Positions 27,924 through 50,355 are shown, numbered from the stretch's first letter. The stretch is DNA of 64,000 nucleotides from an uncultured Chloroflexia bacterium (GCA_963713285.1 CAVQLA010000014.1:140566-204565); one strand, 5' to 3'. Notes: generated by a model from the letters alone, not told the origin. Numbers and translations: made by a program.

Positions 27924-28495
27924 CGAGGAACCTCATGCGACCTTGCTCCGTCGGGCGGCGGCTGCCACCGCGGGAGGCCCAGCCGGCTCAGGGTAGGCCA
28001 GCGTCACCCATCGGAGAGGTGCCGATGGCCTCGTTCCGTTGGGCCTGCGGTCACGAGGTCCGCTGCGGCCGAGATCGACGCGCCGGCTCCCGGCCGGAGT
28101 CCTCCATCACCATCCTGACGGGCGGCTGCCGGCTCCGAGCCGAGGGAACCGGCCGGTCTCTGCCGCTGCCAACGCGGCGACCGCGGCGATGGCGACGCCG
28201 ATCGCGAGCACGATCACCCCCGCCACGAGAAGGTAGCGTCGCATCTCCAAGCCCTCCGCGATCGGCTGTGCGGGTCGGTCTCGCCAGTGGCTCGGCGCGG
28301 TCCCGGTGGCCGGAACGTGGGCCGCGTCGAGACTCTCCGCACCGGTCACGTTGGGGGCAGCTCGCGCGCCTGGCGAGAGGCGAACGGCCCATGGCTTCGC
28401 GGACCGGCCGGCGGCCGTCGAGCATTCTCGAACCCGCGAGACGCGTGGTCCCTCACGGGTTCACGAGCCAGGGAGGCGGTCCGGTTGGAGGCGCG

Positions 28496-31559: not shown

Positions 31560-31786
31560 ACCATGCGTTCGCGGCGGCGAACATTCGCGAGCGCAGCCTC
31601 GGCCAGGCCTGGCGCGATCGCGACTACGTCGCGCTGCGCGAACGGTTATTGGACTTCGACTTCGCCCCCTGCGGGACCTGCAACACCTGCGACATTGCCG
31701 ACGAGAACCTGGAGGACTGCTTCGGCAGCCCGACCCCGGCGTGCGGCGGCTGGCCCTGGGCGCAGGGGCTCATCCGCTGCCCCTAG
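31560..31786 (+). pseudogene. Possible 3' remnant of a radical-SAM SPASM/twitch-domain gene (Cys-rich C-terminus without an N-terminal body)
   Basis: Frame reads ...SLGQAWRDRDYVALRERLLDFDFAPCGTCNTCDIADENLEDCFGSPTPACGGWPWAQGLIRCP*. This resembles SPASM C-termini (cf. PqqE ...EIW..S.AF..FRG....PCRSC....GGC.C...). There is no in-frame start, and the upstream sequence in this frame is antisense to the sigma gene. Local GC is slightly lower. Confidence 0.3.
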
Positions 31787-32156
31787 CCTGCGGCGCGATC
31801 GCTTGGGCCGGCTCGCCCCCGCGTCCGCCTGGAGCGATACCAGGCCAGGTACTCGAGCAGCTCCTCCCGTTCGTCGTCCGTGAGATCGGCGAAGAGGGCC
31901 GCCCCCACGGCCTCGACAGGGTTCGCGTCCGACTCGCCGGGCACGTGATAGCCGGAGAGCCGCATGAGCTCCGCGTAGGGCACGGCAAGGGCCCGACCCA
32001 GCTGGTGCAGGACGTGCGGCGAGGGCCGCTTGACCGCGTTGTTCTCGAGCTTGTTGAGGTACGCCGGCGAGATGTCCGCCGCGCGCGCCGCATCGGCGGC
32101 CGACAGCTTGCGAACAAGGCGCGCCTGCCTCAGCACGGCCCCGATCGATGGCGCCA
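31783..32156 (-). CDS. XRE-family helix-turn-helix transcriptional regulator
   Basis: HTH VRKLSAADAARAADISPAYLNKLENN. GTG at 32156 preceded by AAGGAG; the ORF-track start at 32172 lacks an RBS. Confidence 0.75.
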
Positions 32157-32170
32157 CGGCTACTCCTTGC

Positions 32171-32207
32171 ACTACAGTAGATGATGATAACTACAGTTGA
32201 CAATACC
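32171..32207. promoter_or_regulatory. AT-rich operator/promoter element with direct repeat ACTACAGT-N11-ACTACAGT and a -35-like TTGACA
   Basis: ACTACAGTAGATGATGATAACTACAGTTGACAATACC lies in the divergent region between the XRE gene and the 32314 gene, and is strongly AT-rich against the roughly 72% GC background. Confidence 0.5.
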
Positions 32208-32313
32208 ATGCGTCCATGGTTCACTGCAGGCACAGCAGTGGCCGGAGCGTCGCCCGGCGGAGGTCATGAGGCCCCGCTTCCCCGGATGCCTGTGCAGGCA
32301 CACGGAGGCAGTC

Positions 32314-33045
32314 ATGGCCATCGATCAGGTCGACCGGACGGTCGCAGCCCAGGCACCCGCGATACTCGCGGAGCAGGAGACGGTGCCGCCAGTCCCGCCC
32401 GTTTCCTCCAGCCACGACGACCTCGACGCAGGCCCCGAGATGACGGCCCAGGAGCTCGCGAACGAACCCGGCACCACCGCCCCCGCCGACGATCTCGAGA
32501 CGGGCCGGTCGAGCGCCGTCCAGCGCGTGTCGGGCGCGGTGAGGATGGCCCGCACGGGTGTCGTCACGCTGGTCGAGCGGGCGCCCGGAGCCCTGCGCGC
32601 GACAGGCGCCGGGGTGCAGGGAACCACGAGCGCGCTGCAGCGGCTTCCCGACTCGACGCTTCGCTGGCTGGCCGCCGGCTCGGTTGGCCTCGCCGCGGGC
32701 CTCAGGCTCGCCCGTGCGCCGCGGCTGGTCAGGATGGCAGGGACGGCACCCGCGCTGCTCGTGGGCGCGGCCATCGTGCTGCGCCGGACCGAGCCGGCCG
32801 CCCCGGACCGCGAGGACGCCGGCGAGCCGACGGGAGGAAGGACCGAGATGACGGACGAGCACACCAAGGGCGCCATCAGCAAGGCAACGGGGACGGTCGA
32901 GGAGGGCCTCGGCACGCTGACGGGCGACAAGGAACGCCAGGTCCACGGCAAGGCCAAGCAGGTCCAGGGTAAGGCCCAGGAGGCCCTCGGCGACATCGGG
33001 GACGCGGTCGCAGAGGCGACGCACCAGGAGAAGAAGGGCGCCTGA
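32314..33045 (+). CDS. Membrane protein with C-terminal CsbD-like general-stress domain; an internal RBS+ATG at 32848 could also produce a stand-alone CsbD
   Basis: ATG 32314 preceded by ACGGAGG. TM segment around LRWLAAGSVGLAAGL...ALLVGAAIVL. The last 66 aa (MTDEHTKGAISKATGTVEEGLGTLTGDKERQVHGKAKQVQGKAQEALGDIGDA...) are in-frame CsbD and are preceded by GGGAGGAAGG. Confidence 0.6.
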   Translation: MAIDQVDRTVAAQAPAILAEQETVPPVPPVSSSHDDLDAGPEMTAQELANEPGTTAPADDLETGRSSAVQRVSGAVRMARTGVVTLVERAPGALRATGAGVQGTTSALQRLPDSTLRWLAAGSVGLAAGLRLARAPRLVRMAGTAPALLVGAAIVLRRTEPAAPDREDAGEPTGGRTEMTDEHTKGAISKATGTVEEGLGTLTGDKERQVHGKAKQVQGKAQEALGDIGDAVAEATHQEKKGA

Positions 33046-41740: not shown

Positions 41741-41927
41741 GGTCCGCCGTCAGCGCAGGGCCTGACCTGGTCAGCCCTCGCCTCGACGGGGGGAGACCTG
41801 GCGATCATAGCGACCGCCCCCCGGATGCACGAGCGAGCCTGTCGAGGCGCGGGGGTCGATGCCCGGCGGGGAGCCGGTTGCGACGGCGGCCAGGGTGGGG
41901 CCCGGGAGGCACCCGGGTCACCCGCGA

Positions 41928-42965
41928 TCAGGGAGCGGGCGTCGCCTCGGGCGTCGGTGTCGGCGTCGGGTCTGGCGTGGGTGACGGTGTCGTGTCTGGT
42001 GGCGGCGTCGGTGACGGCGTCGCGTCTGGAGTCGGTGACGGCGTCGCGTCTGGAGTCGGTGTCGGCGTCGGGTCTGGTGTCGGCGTCGGGTCTGGTGTCG
42101 GCGTCGGTGTAGGTGTTGGCGTCGGGCGAGGTCTCGGCGTCGGCCGAGGCGTCGGTGTCGGTGTCGGTACTGGGGTCGGCGGCAGCGTCGCCTCCGGTGT
42201 CGGCGTCGGGGTCGGGTCCGGGGTGACCTCGGGCGTGGGGGTCGGCTCCGGGGTGAGCTCGGGCGTCGGGGTCGGCTCGGGCGAAGGGGTCGCCTCGGGT
42301 GTCGCCTCGGGTGTCGGCGTCACCTCCATCGACGGAGGGGGCGTGACCGTGTCGGGCCCCGTCCCCGGGTTCTGTTTCGGGTCCGGCGCCGGCGTGGGAT
42401 CGGGCGTTGTGACGGGCATCTCGCCGGGGGCCCTCGAGCCGTCCTGGGATCGCAGCTCGCAGTTCTCGAAGCGGTCCTTCGCCGTGCCGTAGCAGGCGTC
42501 CGCGTTCCCGGCGCCGCCGTCGAGCAGGTCCCTTCCGTTGCCGCCCTCGATCATGTCGTCGTCGCCGCCACCGTGGAGCGTGTCGGCGCCCTCGCCGCCC
42601 AGCAGCACGTCCTTTCCGTTCCCGCCGACTAGGCTGTCGTTGCCCTCCCCGCCGACCAGGCAGTCCTTGCCGTTGCCGCCGTCGATCGTGTCGTCGCCGC
42701 CGAGCCCGAAGACGAGCGCGCCCCCGTTGCCGGCGACGAGGTCATCGTCTCCCGACGTTCCGACGATGACCTGGGCGAACTCCATGTCGGCGCATTCGGG
42801 CGGCACGGCCGGCGTGGGAGTCGGTTCGGGAATCTGCGCGATGAGCTGCAGGGCGAACGTGATCGAGTCCGAGAAGTAGGCCGACGAGCTCCCGATGCCC
42901 ACGGCCAATCCCGCGACGACCAGGCCGGCTACCGCGAGGCGCAGGTGGCGTGGGCCTCTACGCAT
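41928..42965 (-). CDS. Secreted SipW-cognate protein with RTX-like Gly/Asp calcium-binding-type repeats and a Pro/Thr-rich tandem-repeat C-terminal tail
   Basis: N-terminus ...[18 protein letters not shown] (AYFSD-type SipW-cognate signal). Middle region [59 protein letters not shown]. The C-terminal ~150 aa are (T/P)PTP(E/D)(A/P)TP repeats. AAGGAG RBS. Confidence 0.7.
41931..42380. repeat. Tandem degenerate short repeats (GTCGGTGTCGGCGTCGGG-like units) encoding the Pro/Thr-rich tail
   Basis: Visible periodic ggcgtcggtgtcggcgtcgggtctgg... units. This is a coding low-complexity repeat, not a CRISPR array (no spacers, no constant repeat). Confidence 0.7.
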
Positions 42966-44511: not shown

Positions 44512-45213
44512 TCAGAGAGCCGGAGCGCCGTCCGGGGCGGCCACTTCAACCAGTCGGGCGAGCCCCTCCTCGTCGAGGACGATGATCCCGCCGCCCCGTT
44601 CGCGCTTCACGAGGCCGTCTGCTTCCAGTCGGCTCAGCGTCCGGTACATCATCACGCGGCTCGTGCCGATCATGGCCGCCAGGTCGGCGCGCAGCGCGAC
44701 CGGGTGGGGCGTGTCGAAGATCACCTTCCCGTACCGAAGGAGAATGGCGGCCATCCGCTGGCGCGCGCTCGCGAAGGACCGTTCGTCGAGCCGCACATTG
44801 AGGACCACCGCGAAATCCGAGGCCAGGTCGAGCAGGCCCACGGCCAGCCCGGCGTCCTGGAGCGCGAGCTCGCGCATGAAGACCGGATCCCACGTCGCCC
44901 ACGTCCCGTCGCTCAACGCGACGAGCTCGTACAGCGCGTCGGCGGTCGGGTCGCTGATCGAGCGGAGTCCGCCGAAATAGCCAGGGCCCGCGATCAGCGC
45001 TGCGTACACCTGTCCCGTCTCCACCACGCGGCGGTTCATGACGTGCCCGTCGAGCACGACGAACGGGGGCAGCTGGATCCCCCTCGAGTGCAACAGGTCA
45101 CGGCGAGAGAAGGCCTGCAGGCGAGCCCCCCGCTCCAGGCGACGCAGCGTGCTGGCTTCCATGCCTGGGAGAAGCCGTGCCAGGTGATCACCAACTGGTT
45201 CGATCGCACCCAT
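44512..45213 (-). CDS. Crp/Fnr-family transcriptional regulator (cNMP-binding domain + C-terminal HTH)
   Basis: cNMP-binding beta-roll (FSRRDLLHSRGIQLPPFVVLDGHV...) and HTH RADLAAMIGTSRVMMYRTLSRLEADGLV. ATG at 45211-45213. Confidence 0.8.
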   Translation of the reverse strand: MGAIEPVGDHLARLLPGMEASTLRRLERGARLQAFSRRDLLHSRGIQLPPFVVLDGHVMNRRVVETGQVYAALIAGPGYFGGLRSISDPTADALYELVALSDGTWATWDPVFMRELALQDAGLAVGLLDLASDFAVVLNVRLDERSFASARQRMAAILLRYGKVIFDTPHPVALRADLAAMIGTSRVMMYRTLSRLEADGLVKRERGGGIIVLDEEGLARLVEVAAPDGAPAL

Positions 45214-45585
45214 GGAGGCCCTCTTCGAGTACGGCCGATGGCACCGAGCCTGGATTCCGACTCGCAGGTGAACTTTGACATTGCCGGCGTTGGAAAGAAA
45301 GGTACGTTGCGATCTACGACGGTCCCGCCGCCTTCGTGCCCGGGCGCGATGGGAACGCCGCGCGCCAGGCTCCACGGGCCTGGGGTCCCGCAGGGGGGGA
45401 GCCTGGCGCGGCGAGGCGAGATGCGCGAGGAGGTGGTCGCGGGCGTGGCATCGGGAACAGCTGTCCGGGTCGTGCGGGCCAGGGGCGACGCTCGCCGGGC
45501 AAGATCGCAGGCGCCCGACCCGACTCAGGCCGGGCCTGCATTTGCGGATGTCTTGCCGGTGTCTTCCACCGTGGGAGGATGAGCC

Positions 45586-46380
45586 ATGATTCCCGGCCTC
45601 GTGAGCGACCCGGAGGTCGAGGCGCACCGCGCGCTGGTGCTCCACGATCGCCCGCTGGTCGTGGACCTGATCGAGCTGACGCTGAACCACGGCATCTTCG
45701 TCGTCCGGGCCGCGAGCAGCCTGGCAGACGCCGAGGCGATCCTGGACGAGTGGCGCCCGCACCTCGCCGTCATCGACATGGACCACGACGACAGCACGGC
45801 GCTGCTCCAGCGTATCGGCGCCTCGAACACCTTGACCCGCAGCGTGACGCCGGCCCTGGGCCTGACCCGGCGCGGCGACCTCAAGACCAAGCTGCGGGCC
45901 TTCGAGCTCGGCGTCGACGACATCCTGACGGTGCCGTTCTCACCTGAGGAGCTCCTGGCCCGGTCGATCGTCATCACCCGTCGCGCCTCAGGGACCGACC
46001 GACCCATCGTGCCGACGATCAGGCTCGGCGAGATCGAGATCGACATCCTCAGCCGCCAGGTGCGGGCCGGCGACTCGGTCATCCACCTGAGCGGCATCGA
46101 GCAGAGCCTGCTGTACCTCCTCGCGAGTCGCGGCGGACGCGTCGTCACGCGCGAGGAGATCCTCGACGCCGTCTGGGGCACCGACTTCCTGACCGAGAGC
46201 AACATCGTGGATCGCCACGTTCGCAGCCTGCGGGTCAAGCTGCAGAACGACTACCGGCATCCGCGCTTCATCGCCACGGTCCCCGGCCAGGGGTACCGTT
46301 TCATCCCCACCTTCACGAACACGGGCTGGGGTGCCGGGGTCGAGCCGGTGGGGCGGCCGCCCGAGCGGCGTCGCAACTGA
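45586..46380 (+). CDS. OmpR-family response regulator (orphan; receiver domain with atypical acidic pocket)
   Basis: Receiver VIDMDHDD...K in LKTKLRAFELGVDDILTVPF. Winged-helix DNA-binding domain ...VIHLSGIEQSLLYLLASRGGRVVTREEILDAVWG...GQGYRF. No histidine kinase adjacent. Confidence 0.8.
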   Translation: MIPGLVSDPEVEAHRALVLHDRPLVVDLIELTLNHGIFVVRAASSLADAEAILDEWRPHLAVIDMDHDDSTALLQRIGASNTLTRSVTPALGLTRRGDLKTKLRAFELGVDDILTVPFSPEELLARSIVITRRASGTDRPIVPTIRLGEIEIDILSRQVRAGDSVIHLSGIEQSLLYLLASRGGRVVTREEILDAVWGTDFLTESNIVDRHVRSLRVKLQNDYRHPRFIATVPGQGYRFIPTFTNTGWGAGVEPVGRPPERRRN

Positions 46381-46517: not shown

Positions 46518-46534
46518 ATCCCCCGGACATGACG
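46518..46534. promoter_or_regulatory. Perfect 8-N1-8 palindrome CATGACGG-A-CCGTCATG (copy 1)
   Basis: Read directly from the sequence. Lies 138 nt after the response-regulator stop and about 140 nt upstream of the 29-aa peptide ORF. Confidence 0.5.
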
Positions 46535-46674
46535 GACCGTCATGACGCGCCGATGGCGGCGCGACACACTGGCATCGCGAAGGCGTCGTCGCGCTGAGGC
46601 ATCACGCACGTGAGCGCGATCCCCACCCCGACGACCGGCGGAACGGCCTTGCCAGTCCGGAACGGGAGATCGTC

Positions 46675-48370: not shown

Positions 48371-48778
48371 TCAGGCCGGCTGGCGCCGGAAGATGCCGAC
48401 GGCCCACAGCACGATGAGCTCGATGACCGTCCAGCCGACGAGGGCCACGACGGCGGCGACGTCGAGCGTCGATCCCGCGGCGTTGAGGGAGTCCGTCCGG
48501 AGGATCCCCTCGAACGGGGCGACGAAGACCTGGCTGACGTCGAGGATGCCAGCCACGAGGGCGTTCGCCTCCCGCGCGTCCAGGAGCAGCAGGACGATCC
48601 GCGCCCCGATGACGAGCTGGATCAGCCCGAAGACGAGGACGACGATCCGCCGGGCCATCTCGGAGCCCCCGGGGCCCGTCCTGGTGATGCGCCGGCTGTC
48701 GGTCCGCACGGTTTCCTGGCCCGCGGGGGTGATGGGTGCCTGGGTGACGACCGTCCGGTCGACCTGGTCGATGGCCAT
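48371..48778 (-). CDS. YggT-family small membrane protein
   Basis: ARIVLLLLDAREANALVAGILDVSQVFVAPFEGILRTDSL...LDVAAVVALV matches the YggT pattern (R.LL.W....N.....I...T.P.L.P.R..IP...G.DLSP). ATG at 48776-48778. Confidence 0.65.
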   Translation of the reverse strand: MAIDQVDRTVVTQAPITPAGQETVRTDSRRITRTGPGGSEMARRIVVLVFGLIQLVIGARIVLLLLDAREANALVAGILDVSQVFVAPFEGILRTDSLNAAGSTLDVAAVVALVGWTVIELIVLWAVGIFRRQPA

Positions 48779-48874
48779 GGTGTTCTCCGTGTGCCTGTGG
48801 GGCATCCGGGGGAAGCGGGTGTACCCGCACCCCGTGGGATGCTGCTCCCGAGTGTCACCCGGAGCTGACCAATC

Positions 48875-48895
48875 GTCATGACGGCCCGTCATGAC
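48875..48895. promoter_or_regulatory. Near-perfect palindrome GTCATGACGG-C-CCGTCATGAC (copy 2 of the CATGACGG-N-CCGTCATG motif)
   Basis: Read directly from the sequence. Lies in the divergent intergenic region between the YggT-family gene (-) and the GlsB/YeaQ gene (+). Confidence 0.5.
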
Positions 48896-49004: not shown

Positions 49005-49271
49005 ATGGGGATCATCGCCTGGATCGTCGTCGGCGCGATCGCCGGCGTCATCGCCACCTTCATCACGGGGACCCGGGCGGGCATCGTGATGACGGTCGTT
49101 CTCGGCATCGTCGGAGCGCTCGTCGGCGGCTTCCTTGCCGGTGCCTTGTTCGGCGTCAAGGATCCGACCGGCTTCAACCTCGAGACGATCGTGGTGGCCG
49201 TGATCGGCGCGGTCATCGTCGTCTTCGTCGCCGGCCTGCTGGGCCTCGGTGGGGGCCGAAGGACGGCTTGA
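49005..49271 (+). CDS. GlsB/YeaQ/YmgE-family stress membrane protein (transglycosylase-associated protein)
   Basis: MGIIAWIVVGAIAGVIATFITGTRAGIVMTVVLGIVGALVGGFLAGALFG. GGAGGG RBS. Confidence 0.8.
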   Translation: MGIIAWIVVGAIAGVIATFITGTRAGIVMTVVLGIVGALVGGFLAGALFGVKDPTGFNLETIVVAVIGAVIVVFVAGLLGLGGGRRTA

Positions 49272-49306: not shown

Positions 49307-49329
49307 GCAGACGCAGGAGAACGTTCGAC

Positions 49330-49527
49330 ATGGCAGACGAGCACACCAAGGGCGCCATCAGCAAGGCCACGGGCAAGGTCGAGGAAGGGCTCGGCAAGCT
49401 GACCGGCAACAAGGAGCAGGAGCTCCACGGCAAGGTCAAGCAGGTCCAGGGGGCAGGGCAGCAGACCCTGGGCGACATCCAGGACGCCGTCCGGGGGCCC
49501 AAGGACAAGGACAAGGAAGAGGCCTGA
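49330..49527 (+). CDS. csbD: CsbD-family general stress protein
   Basis: MADEHTKGAISKATGKVEEGLGKLTGNKEQELHGKVKQVQGAGQQTLGDIQDAV... AGGAGA RBS. Confidence 0.8.
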   Translation: MADEHTKGAISKATGKVEEGLGKLTGNKEQELHGKVKQVQGAGQQTLGDIQDAVRGPKDKDKEEA

Positions 49528-50097: not shown

Positions 50098-50355
50098 ATG
50101 ATTGACAAGCCACCGCCGGCGCCCGTGATGCCCGGCGACTTCGCGTCCGGGGAGCGGACCGACACCCCGACACCGGAGGAAGCGCGGGAGGAGGCCCTCC
50201 AGGGCGACTTCGCCTCTGGCGAGCGGTCCGAGCTCCCGACACAGGAGGAAGTGCTCGAGGAGGGCCTCCACGGCGACTTCGCCGCTGGCGAGCGCACGGA
50301 GCCCCTCACCCCGGAGGACGACACTGCGGGGACCTTCGCCGACACCAGCCGCTAG
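50098..50355 (+). CDS. Small acidic repeat protein (85 aa; three 23-aa GDFA(S/A)GER...PT.EE repeats), predicted disordered
   Basis: AAGGAGAGACAG precedes the ATG. Reads MIDKPPPAPVMP, then GDFASGERTDTPTPEEAREEALQ / GDFASGERSELPTQEEVLEEGLH / GDFAAGERTEPLTPEDDTAGTFADTSR. Confidence 0.5.
   Translation: MIDKPPPAPVMPGDFASGERTDTPTPEEAREEALQGDFASGERSELPTQEEVLEEGLHGDFAAGERTEPLTPEDDTAGTFADTSR
50134..50340. repeat. 3 x 69-bp tandem direct repeat (ggcgacttcgc...ggcgagcg...) inside the 50098 gene
   Basis: Repeat units start at 50134, 50203 and 50272 (period 69 bp). Confidence 0.8.

Follow-up and report, generated by a model that had tools for sequence, protein, structure and literature searches.

Translational riboswitch platforms and RNA thermometers of the ROSE and fourU types are among the closest described relatives of the element reported here. 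The element is a leader that occurs twice in a 64,000-nucleotide (nt) stretch of DNA from an uncultured Chloroflexia bacterium (GCA_963713285.1, CAVQLA010000014.1:140566-204565), which is called the window below; the leader stands once ahead of a yggT-like gene and once ahead of an unrelated gene for a membrane protein with a CsbD domain (gene A). As in those systems, the predicted fold pairs the Shine-Dalgarno (SD) sequence with a CU-rich anti-SD across a nested hairpin with G-U pairs, and a structured 5' leader without a terminator combines a conserved core with varying loops and an upstream segment that would compete for a GGAUGC strand. Unlike them, the yggT leader has no Rfam match, carries at least two unrelated 5' halves on one 3' platform, and has an alternative helix that does not covary. 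The encoded proteins compare with the small stress-associated families YggT (PF02325), Transgly_assoc/GlsB (PF04226) and CsbD (PF05532), and the operon content is similarly made up of small proteins of the membrane and general-stress type. The other systems that invite comparison are gene fusion by internal deletion, and the invertons, shufflons and chromosomal inversions at inverted repeats, where several genes lie between inverted arms and recombination would give genes other regulatory regions. We consider it probable that the two copies are paralogous yggT-leader platforms, copy A (at gene A) a deletion relic and copy B (at yggT) native, that their likeness comes from family-wide constraint, and that they are likely to exert translational control.

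The two copies were brought to attention by an earlier note on the window, which described an inverted repeat of about 120 bp, called it a promoter-plus-leader duplication of very high identity, and suggested that recombination between the arms would invert the intervening block. The repeat itself is real. The longest inverted repeat within 30-51 kb pairs 32295-32386 with 48706-48797 (92 nt ungapped, 79% complementary, 16,319 nt apart), and once one 1-nt indel is allowed the arms extend in the 5' direction to CCCGCTTCCCC at 32274 and 48819, giving a full module of about 113 nt at about 78% identity. A degenerate 50-nt core pattern finds exactly two matches in the window, one in each arm, compared with none in 100 shuffles. 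Likeness does run through the ribosome-binding site (RBS) and the first codons, but at about 78-80% overall rather than at very high identity: 31 of 42 aligned columns agree in the 5' untranslated region (UTR) and 60 of the first 75 coding nt, the longest exact run common to both arms is 19 nt (CAGGTCGACCGGACGGTCG, 32326-32344), and the flanks (60 nt upstream and 120 nt downstream of the arms) fall to about 48%, the background at this G+C content. Translation bears out the start codons at 32314 (+) and 48778 (-), with both open reading frames (ORFs) beginning MAIDQVDRTV, and past this shared start the ORF bodies are unrelated. Upstream of CCCGCTTCCCC, the promoter regions and the 5' leader halves differ between the copies.

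The leader is far more widespread than the window. Species-representative genomes scanned for the back-translated N-terminus yielded 35 loci, all but one from uncultured Chloroflexota metagenome-assembled genomes (MAGs), several of them titled Limnocylindria or Limnocylindrales; the remaining locus comes from a MAG titled uncultured Gaiellaceae. The bacterium from which the window comes is itself placed in the class Limnocylindria of the Chloroflexota. A metagenome scan for the same N-terminus added at least 120 further loci. The commonest class, type 1, has the layout ACAGCAGUGGCCGG-loop-CCCGGCGGUGGUC-loop-GRCCCCGCUUCCCCGGAUGCC-loop-GGCAC-N-GGAG, and type 2 combines another 5' half (..CGGCAUYCCAC.GGGUG.GGGUA..) with the 3' part of type 1. 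The leader of copy A is a complete type 1, and copy B is of type 2, with a 5' half (GCAGCAUCCCACGGGGUGCGGGUACA) unlike type 1 and of the same class as those of L026, L047, L095, L029, L012 and others. What the earlier note had seen as a repeat is the part common to type-1 and type-2 leaders together with the conserved first codons. Some 40 nt of untranslated sequence have been conserved in dozens of genomes at species level and in about 100 contigs from metagenomes. Homologues of yggT are also preceded by at least three further classes of long, conserved leader that have no relation to type 1 or type 2: one has the core ..GCGACGGGAUCCUGCCG.., another a GUGCGC...GCGCAC-AAGGAG hairpin and another GGGACAUAGUGGCCUCACG. 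The loci of these further classes fall in three groups (L052, L057, L069, L082, L099, L104, L106, L107, L124 and L155; L042, L066, L073, L103, L112, L116, L117, L126, L142 and L146; L020, L025, L121, L125, L131, L141 and L150). One contig (CAWEIJ010000003.1) carries two yggT genes (L021 and L027) that encode identical 143-amino-acid (aa) proteins behind differing leaders (one of type 2, the other unclassified), a recent gene duplication with leader replacement.

Sequence comparison indicates that the leader is a structured RNA with a conserved fold, in which covariation supports three hairpins. A covariance model built from 26 type-1 leaders contains four helices, namely Pa (GCCGG..CCGGC), P2 (GG.GGUC..GRCCCC), the pairing of CUUCC with GGAG(G), and P3 (UGCC..GGCA), which is nested inside the anti-SD:SD pairing. 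The corresponding parts of copy A are Pa (GCCGG..CCGGC), P2 (GGAGGUC..GGCCCC), the anti-SD CUUCC, P3 (UGCCU..AGGCA) and the SD GGAGG. The model finds only two matches in the window, 32227-32319 (+) at 93 bits and 48773-48863 (-) at 34 bits, and 98 matches at E<0.01 among the leader-bearing loci. In the alignment of these 98 (A6), 87% of cells are paired and both partners have changed in 17 of 22 pairs, where shuffles gave 6.7 ± 1.5 (0/500) and slid controls no more than 11; this alignment was fitted to the model and is hence biased toward structure, which counts against the figure. In the unfitted seed alignment, 6 pairs changed on both sides where the control predicts 2.2. Compensatory changes can also be read directly from individual sequences, in P2 of L075 (GCGACGAUCC / GGAUGGUCGC) and L037 (GCGCA / UGCGC), and in P3 of L068 (UGCG / CGCA), L086 (UGUCU / AGACA) and L019 (AUGUC / GACGU).

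Other folding analyses and database searches added less. With 22 type-1 leaders, RNAalifold gave a nested fold of long-range pairs, none of them compensatory, the set being too conserved to inform, and single-sequence folding gave z = -0.3 for copy A and z = -2.0 for copy B, neither decisive. Rfam 15 (4,227 families), searched at gathering and permissive thresholds with both copies and 20 other leader loci, returned no family and only scattered chance matches, and a search of the literature turned up nothing relevant on any riboswitch or leader of yggT. The terminator scan found no intrinsic terminator in the region of either copy, which argues against transcription attenuation, so that any control is most likely translational. 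In the minimum free energy (MFE) fold of copy A, the 5' GUGGCC pairs with AUGGCCAU in the start-codon region; this helix was rejected because GUGGCC is unchanged in genomes where the second codon is ACC or CCC. The sole gathering-level Rfam match in the window is a c-di-GMP-II-GAG riboswitch aptamer (RF03169) at 28264-28346 (-), with 48.4 bits against a gathering threshold of 40 (E=1.9e-6).

The shared N-terminus belongs to the YggT-like family. The YggT-like protein of locus B has 4,059 homologues, with full-length coverage in all 120 among the matches listed, and MAIDQVDRTVVTQxP is near-invariant in 20 aligned members. Against the Pfam YGGT domain it scores 20.1 bits, below the 27-bit cut-off (E=8.4e-4, profile positions 2-69 of 70), and one homologue (P0088) was named 'YGGT family' by JGI; it differs from the Pfam family in an N-terminal extension of about 45 aa whose MAIDQVDRTVVT motif lies outside the Pfam domain. 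Gene A, in comparison, is chimeric. The first 25 or so codons are left over from the yggT N-terminus, a linker occupies codons ~26-42, and the rest encodes a membrane region and a CsbD domain (aa 184-232, 32863-33009; PF05532, E=3.7e-12, 46.4 bits against a cut-off of 40). Homologues of gene A are mostly about 200 aa long and begin near M43 (ATG at 32440), which is probably the ancestral start. They lack the MAID... extension, which is found on the gene A body only in the window, in P0121-P0124 (P0121-P0123 being close relatives) and in the metagenome variants L051, L133 and L143; in these three variants the fusion ORF is open. Since MAIDQVDRTVVTQxP is native to the YggT-like family and missing from most gene A homologues, gene A is the recipient.

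Comparison of loci suggests how the chimera arose. In relatives (L013, L016 and L009; tblastn), the type-1 operon consists of a divergent regulator, the leader, yggT, glsB and the gene A body, and the order leader, yggT, glsB, gene A body recurs in L002, L003, L007 and L014 (tblastn). Locus A of the window has the same regulator upstream and a converging giant gene downstream, while its leader is followed directly by gene A. Two further loci show other junctions. In L157, an XRE/HTH_31 regulator and the leader are followed by MAIDQVDRTVVTPGLTHHA-stop (12 yggT codons), glsB, gene A and a converging GH94 gene; the junction is out of frame and leaves a mini-ORF of 19 codons. L158, with the same flanks as L157 and the window (its converging giant gene has no recorded Pfam entry), has gene A fused after about 14 yggT codons. 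The window fusion keeps about 25 codons, up to ..AEQETVP, and is thus derived from neither of these states, which points to independent deletions. Copy A, as far as synteny and alignment can tell, is a relic: the yggT body and glsB were lost at a syntenic locus and about 25 codons were joined in frame to the membrane/CsbD gene. The divergent regulator (up195) has homologues divergently upstream of the type-1 leaders of L003, L007, L009, L013, L016, L018 and L035 (tblastn), and its orthologues in L157 and L158 match PF13560 (HTH_31). The window protein has no Pfam match at E<0.01, its family being assigned via these orthologues, and its true start is probably further downstream than that of the listed ORF.

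Fusion by internal deletion is well matched by locus A, where a downstream gene continues in frame from the start and first codons of an upstream one, and sister lineages show other junctions. Unlike a one-off deletion fusion, the event appears recurrent at the same locus, and relics of the same leader and N-terminus stand on several other gene families, a recurrence that suggests more than a single accident. The leader with 12-27 yggT codons precedes a Cys-rich secreted or anchored protein in L049/L137, L077 and L130, and the leader with yggT codons precedes a 70-aa membrane protein in L036. At ten loci, a small membrane ORF with a TTG start, beginning LAIGRTVV, lies with the leader ahead of yggT, and short mini-ORFs follow the leader in L041 and L043/L151. 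In L072, a leader copy that lacks the coding part precedes a gene for a secreted protein whose N-terminal region, recognised by eye, we take to be putatively DUF3494-like. In L086 (345-1526, +), a type-1 leader and MAIDQVDQTVVTQTPTTAGGQQ lead into a KdpA of which only the C-terminal two thirds remain (profile positions 197-547 of 548, with the first ~196 missing); this fusion comes from a single contig and could reflect pseudogene formation, rearrangement or chimeric assembly, and it is also a possible hint of a link to K+. Three contigs hold two leader copies in tandem orientation ahead of different genes (L077, 378-468/1503-1592; L013, 5345-5442/7207-7294; L072, 18-108/1455-1544), and in L013 the divergent regulator is duplicated too, with the truncated leader copy beside the second regulator paralogue.

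We propose a model in which each arm serves as an expression platform, consisting of the P2 3' strand, the CU-rich anti-SD, P3, the SD, the AUG and the first ~25 codons. Pairing of the SD with the upstream CUUCC around the P3 hairpin would control translation initiation, and the SD would be freed when GGAUGC, the 5' strand of P3, finds its partner instead in the 5' half, in a segment resembling GCAU(C/U)C (helix P1). In type 2, this alternative helix would be GCAUCC:GGAUGC extended by GGGG:CCCC, which is the MFE fold of copy B, and in type 1 it would join GCA..CCGG with CCGG.UGC. Which fold forms in response to a signal would then depend on the 5' half, whether of type 1, type 2 or another kind. 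Compatibility with the sequences is 89-100% for the P3/anti-SD arrangement and likewise for P1, the two folds having the GGAUGC strand in common. In the mixed type-2 MAFFT alignment the P2 columns are misaligned, and P2 was left unscored there.

Several observations weigh against this model or parts of it. Helix P1 shows no covariation, being conserved in type 2 and invariant in type 1, and in L004 and L135 P3 is kept by a compensatory change while P1 is lost. Predicted SD pairing is 0.71, a modest excess over the 0.63 obtained with shuffled upstream sequence, and type-2 leaders show no enrichment (0.57 against 0.60 in shuffles). Substitutions in the fused N-terminal extension are too few for the ratio of nonsynonymous to synonymous rates (dN/dS) to show any selection, so that translation of gene A from the 32314 AUG rather than from M43 stays a prediction. 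Finally, the putative type-2 -10 segment (CACUCG) pairs with a downstream CGGGUG, which conflicts with GACACT as the -10 if the segment is transcribed. On balance, a functional structured leader that acts on translation initiation is likely, and a ligand-sensing riboswitch is no more than possible. The gene context (yggT, glsB and csbD) gives only hints of a stress, osmotic or ion signal.

One alternative to an RNA-level function is conservation at the protein level only, whereby a conserved N-terminal peptide and a standard RBS in a high-GC genome would produce the likeness and the leader would have no role as RNA. The coding part does vary at synonymous sites across genomes (GAT/GAC, CAG/CAA, CGG/CGC/CGA and ACG/ACC) and SD sequestration is only weakly above chance, as this explanation would have it. 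Nevertheless, it is unlikely, as 40 nt of the conserved sequence are untranslated yet retained in the dozens of species-level genomes and ~100 metagenome contigs already mentioned, loops vary while stems hold, with several of the stem changes compensatory, and the untranslated part persists at loci where a different gene has come to stand downstream. At the other extreme, the leader may be a new riboregulator family of Limnocylindria, possibly a riboswitch, that combines an SD-masking platform with interchangeable sensor halves at the 5' end and spreads as a 'start-codon cassette' through in-frame fusion to 12-27 yggT codons. Control exerted at the start codon could be gained by a new gene only through fusion to that codon, which fits the in-frame relics; an alternative explanation is that these relics are neutral deletion remnants, and we regard the cassette proposal as tentative and somewhat doubtful. 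A recent origin within the genome was also considered, in which promoter-plus-leader duplication or gene conversion would have put the yggT leader ahead of an unrelated gene. Leader duplications occur in the group (two copies 1.1 kb apart in L077, a truncated second copy in L013 and the copy ahead of the secreted-protein gene in L072), but the window copies differ in their 5' leader halves and promoters, and locus A is syntenic both with intact type-1 yggT operons and with loci of other deletion junctions. When 151 leaders were ranked by identity to each window copy, the partner came 13th (UTR) and 8th (coding sequence) for copy A and 17th (UTR) and 33rd (coding sequence) for copy B. The partner, at only 8th to 33rd of 151, is thus not the nearest relative of either copy, so that the likeness reflects family-wide constraint; gene conversion between the two copies was rejected on this ranking, and a recent duplication or conversion as a whole is distinctly improbable. 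Of the promoter-plus-leader duplication proposed in the earlier note, what stands is that the leader, RBS and first codons are common to two genes; the promoter lies outside the repeat, and the two copies are not the outcome of a recent duplication.

The inversion of the 32.4-48.7 kb block fares worse still. Homologous or site-specific recombination between the arms would flip the block and swap the leaders of yggT and the CsbD gene, and the geometry fits, with inverted arms of 92-113 nt at ~78% identity bracketing 16.3 kb and a crossover inside the module exchanging the 5' leader halves between the two genes. Efficient RecA-dependent exchange usually needs some 20-30 bp of perfect identity and is suppressed further by mismatches. 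The window arms, unlike those of invertons and shufflons, are short and diverged, with a longest perfect run below that range, and a scan of part of the block ORFs (cupin, Zn peptidase, OmpR-type regulator, Crp-like regulator, S26 peptidase with a weak match, and RTX-repeat protein) revealed neither a recombinase nor an integrase. An independent 8.8-kb contig with an identical YggT (L156) keeps the window junctions about 6 kb into the block, in the order csbD, glsB, yggT, cupin, Zn-peptidase, response regulator and Crp-like regulator, and both of the independent assemblies available show the window orientation only. At L157 and L158, the orthologous loci, the left side is arranged as in the window (regulator, leader, gene A and converging giant gene), and there is no sign of sequence exchange between the copies. 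Inversion therefore finds no support and is very improbable. The block contents are roughly those listed in the earlier note (by profile scans, with the S26 signal-peptidase match weak and the giant gene identified as GH94-type by orthology). As originally described, the repeat is ordinary, the product of paralogous leader conservation and deletion fusion.

Table 1. Coordinates of the leader copies and associated features in the window
Feature	Position	Strand	Basis
Repeat copy A: P2 3' strand, anti-SD, P3, SD, start codon and ~25 yggT-derived codons	32274..32386	+	Repeat search, alignment
Repeat copy B: same module, native setting ahead of intact yggT	48706..48819	-	Repeat search, alignment
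Type-1 yggT leader RNA, copy A	32227..32313	+	Covariance model (32227-32319, 93 bits), covariation
Type-2 yggT leader with predicted -10 GACACT (48851-48856)	48779..48863	-	Covariance model, 34 bits
Chimeric gene A, 243 aa	32314..33045	+	Translation; CsbD Pfam match
YggT-like membrane protein gene, 135 aa, N-terminus MAIDQVDRTVVTQAP	48371..48778	-	Translation, homologue search
Divergent regulator up195, ORF as listed	31646..32233	-	ORF call; XRE/HTH_31-type by orthology
Predicted promoter/operator of copy A	32171..32225	+	Inferred; position conserved among type-1 loci
Palindromic operator GTCATGACGGGCCGTCATGAC, centre ~-41 from predicted start	48875..48895	.	Read from sequence
glsB-like gene (Transgly_assoc), divergent from yggT	49005..49271	+	PF04226, E=2.3e-11
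Stand-alone csbD gene, paralogue of the gene A C-terminal domain	49327..49527	+	PF05532, E=7.7e-13

The predicted promoters of the two copies are differently built (Table 1). That of copy A has a direct repeat ACTACAGT (32171-32178 and 32190-32197), a -35 TTGACA (32197-32202) and a -10-like TTCACT (32220-32225), with a 17-nt spacer ending in TGG, so that the whole reads AACTACAGTTGACA-N17-TTCACT. In the promoter region of copy B, the palindrome GTCATGACGGGCCGTCATGAC is followed 19 nt later by GACACT and, judging by its position, is likely a class-II-type activator site. A strict sigma-70 scan of both regions found no promoter, and the copy A -10 has no A at position 2; the promoter calls for both copies accordingly derive entirely from cross-genome positional conservation. 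A palindromic motif, ATGACGGnCCGTCAT, built of GTCATGAC units, overlaps the -35 position of yggT leaders. Besides 48875-48895, it occurs at 46519-46552, where it lies between the genes for the response regulator and the Zn peptidase, and ahead of numerous yggT leaders in other genomes (e.g. L017, L022, L024, L005, L012 and L026); a Crp-like regulator is encoded at 44512-45786 (-). In the window (48836-48856, -) and in L046, L059 and L062, the putative -10 segment of type 2, GACACUCG, has its complement in CGGGUG(UCUC), which lies about 25 nt farther downstream. The resulting stem reaches 13 bp in L046 and, if transcribed, would form a hairpin with GGCAUUCC in its loop.

Gene A is also linked to the other side of locus B. 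A direct repeat absent from the earlier note (32837-33045 and 49319-49527; 209 nt, 78%) relates its CsbD domain to the stand-alone csbD gene, which scores 48.6 bits against the 40-bit cut-off and shares 74.5% aa identity with that domain. The likeness of gene A thereby extends to genes on both sides of locus B, via the leader and N-terminus and via the CsbD repeat. Elsewhere in the window, tandem repeats of 24/30 nt and 27/54 nt at 41914-42302 and 42535-42752 lie in an ORF (41928-42965, -) that encodes RTX calcium-binding nonapeptide repeats (Pfam E=8e-27), and a 69-nt unit is present in three tandem copies at 50134-50340, with 81% and 65% identity to the first.

These observations replace the reading of a 16-kb invertible regulatory block with that of a gene-loss relic that put a stress gene under the leader of another gene. 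The leader is widespread and structured and has no match in Rfam or the literature searched. With about 100 examples and covariation, it is testable as a translational riboregulator of yggT/glsB/csbD stress genes in a class of abundant yet uncultured soil and freshwater bacteria. The recurrent N-terminal relics illustrate how start-codon control may pass to new genes.

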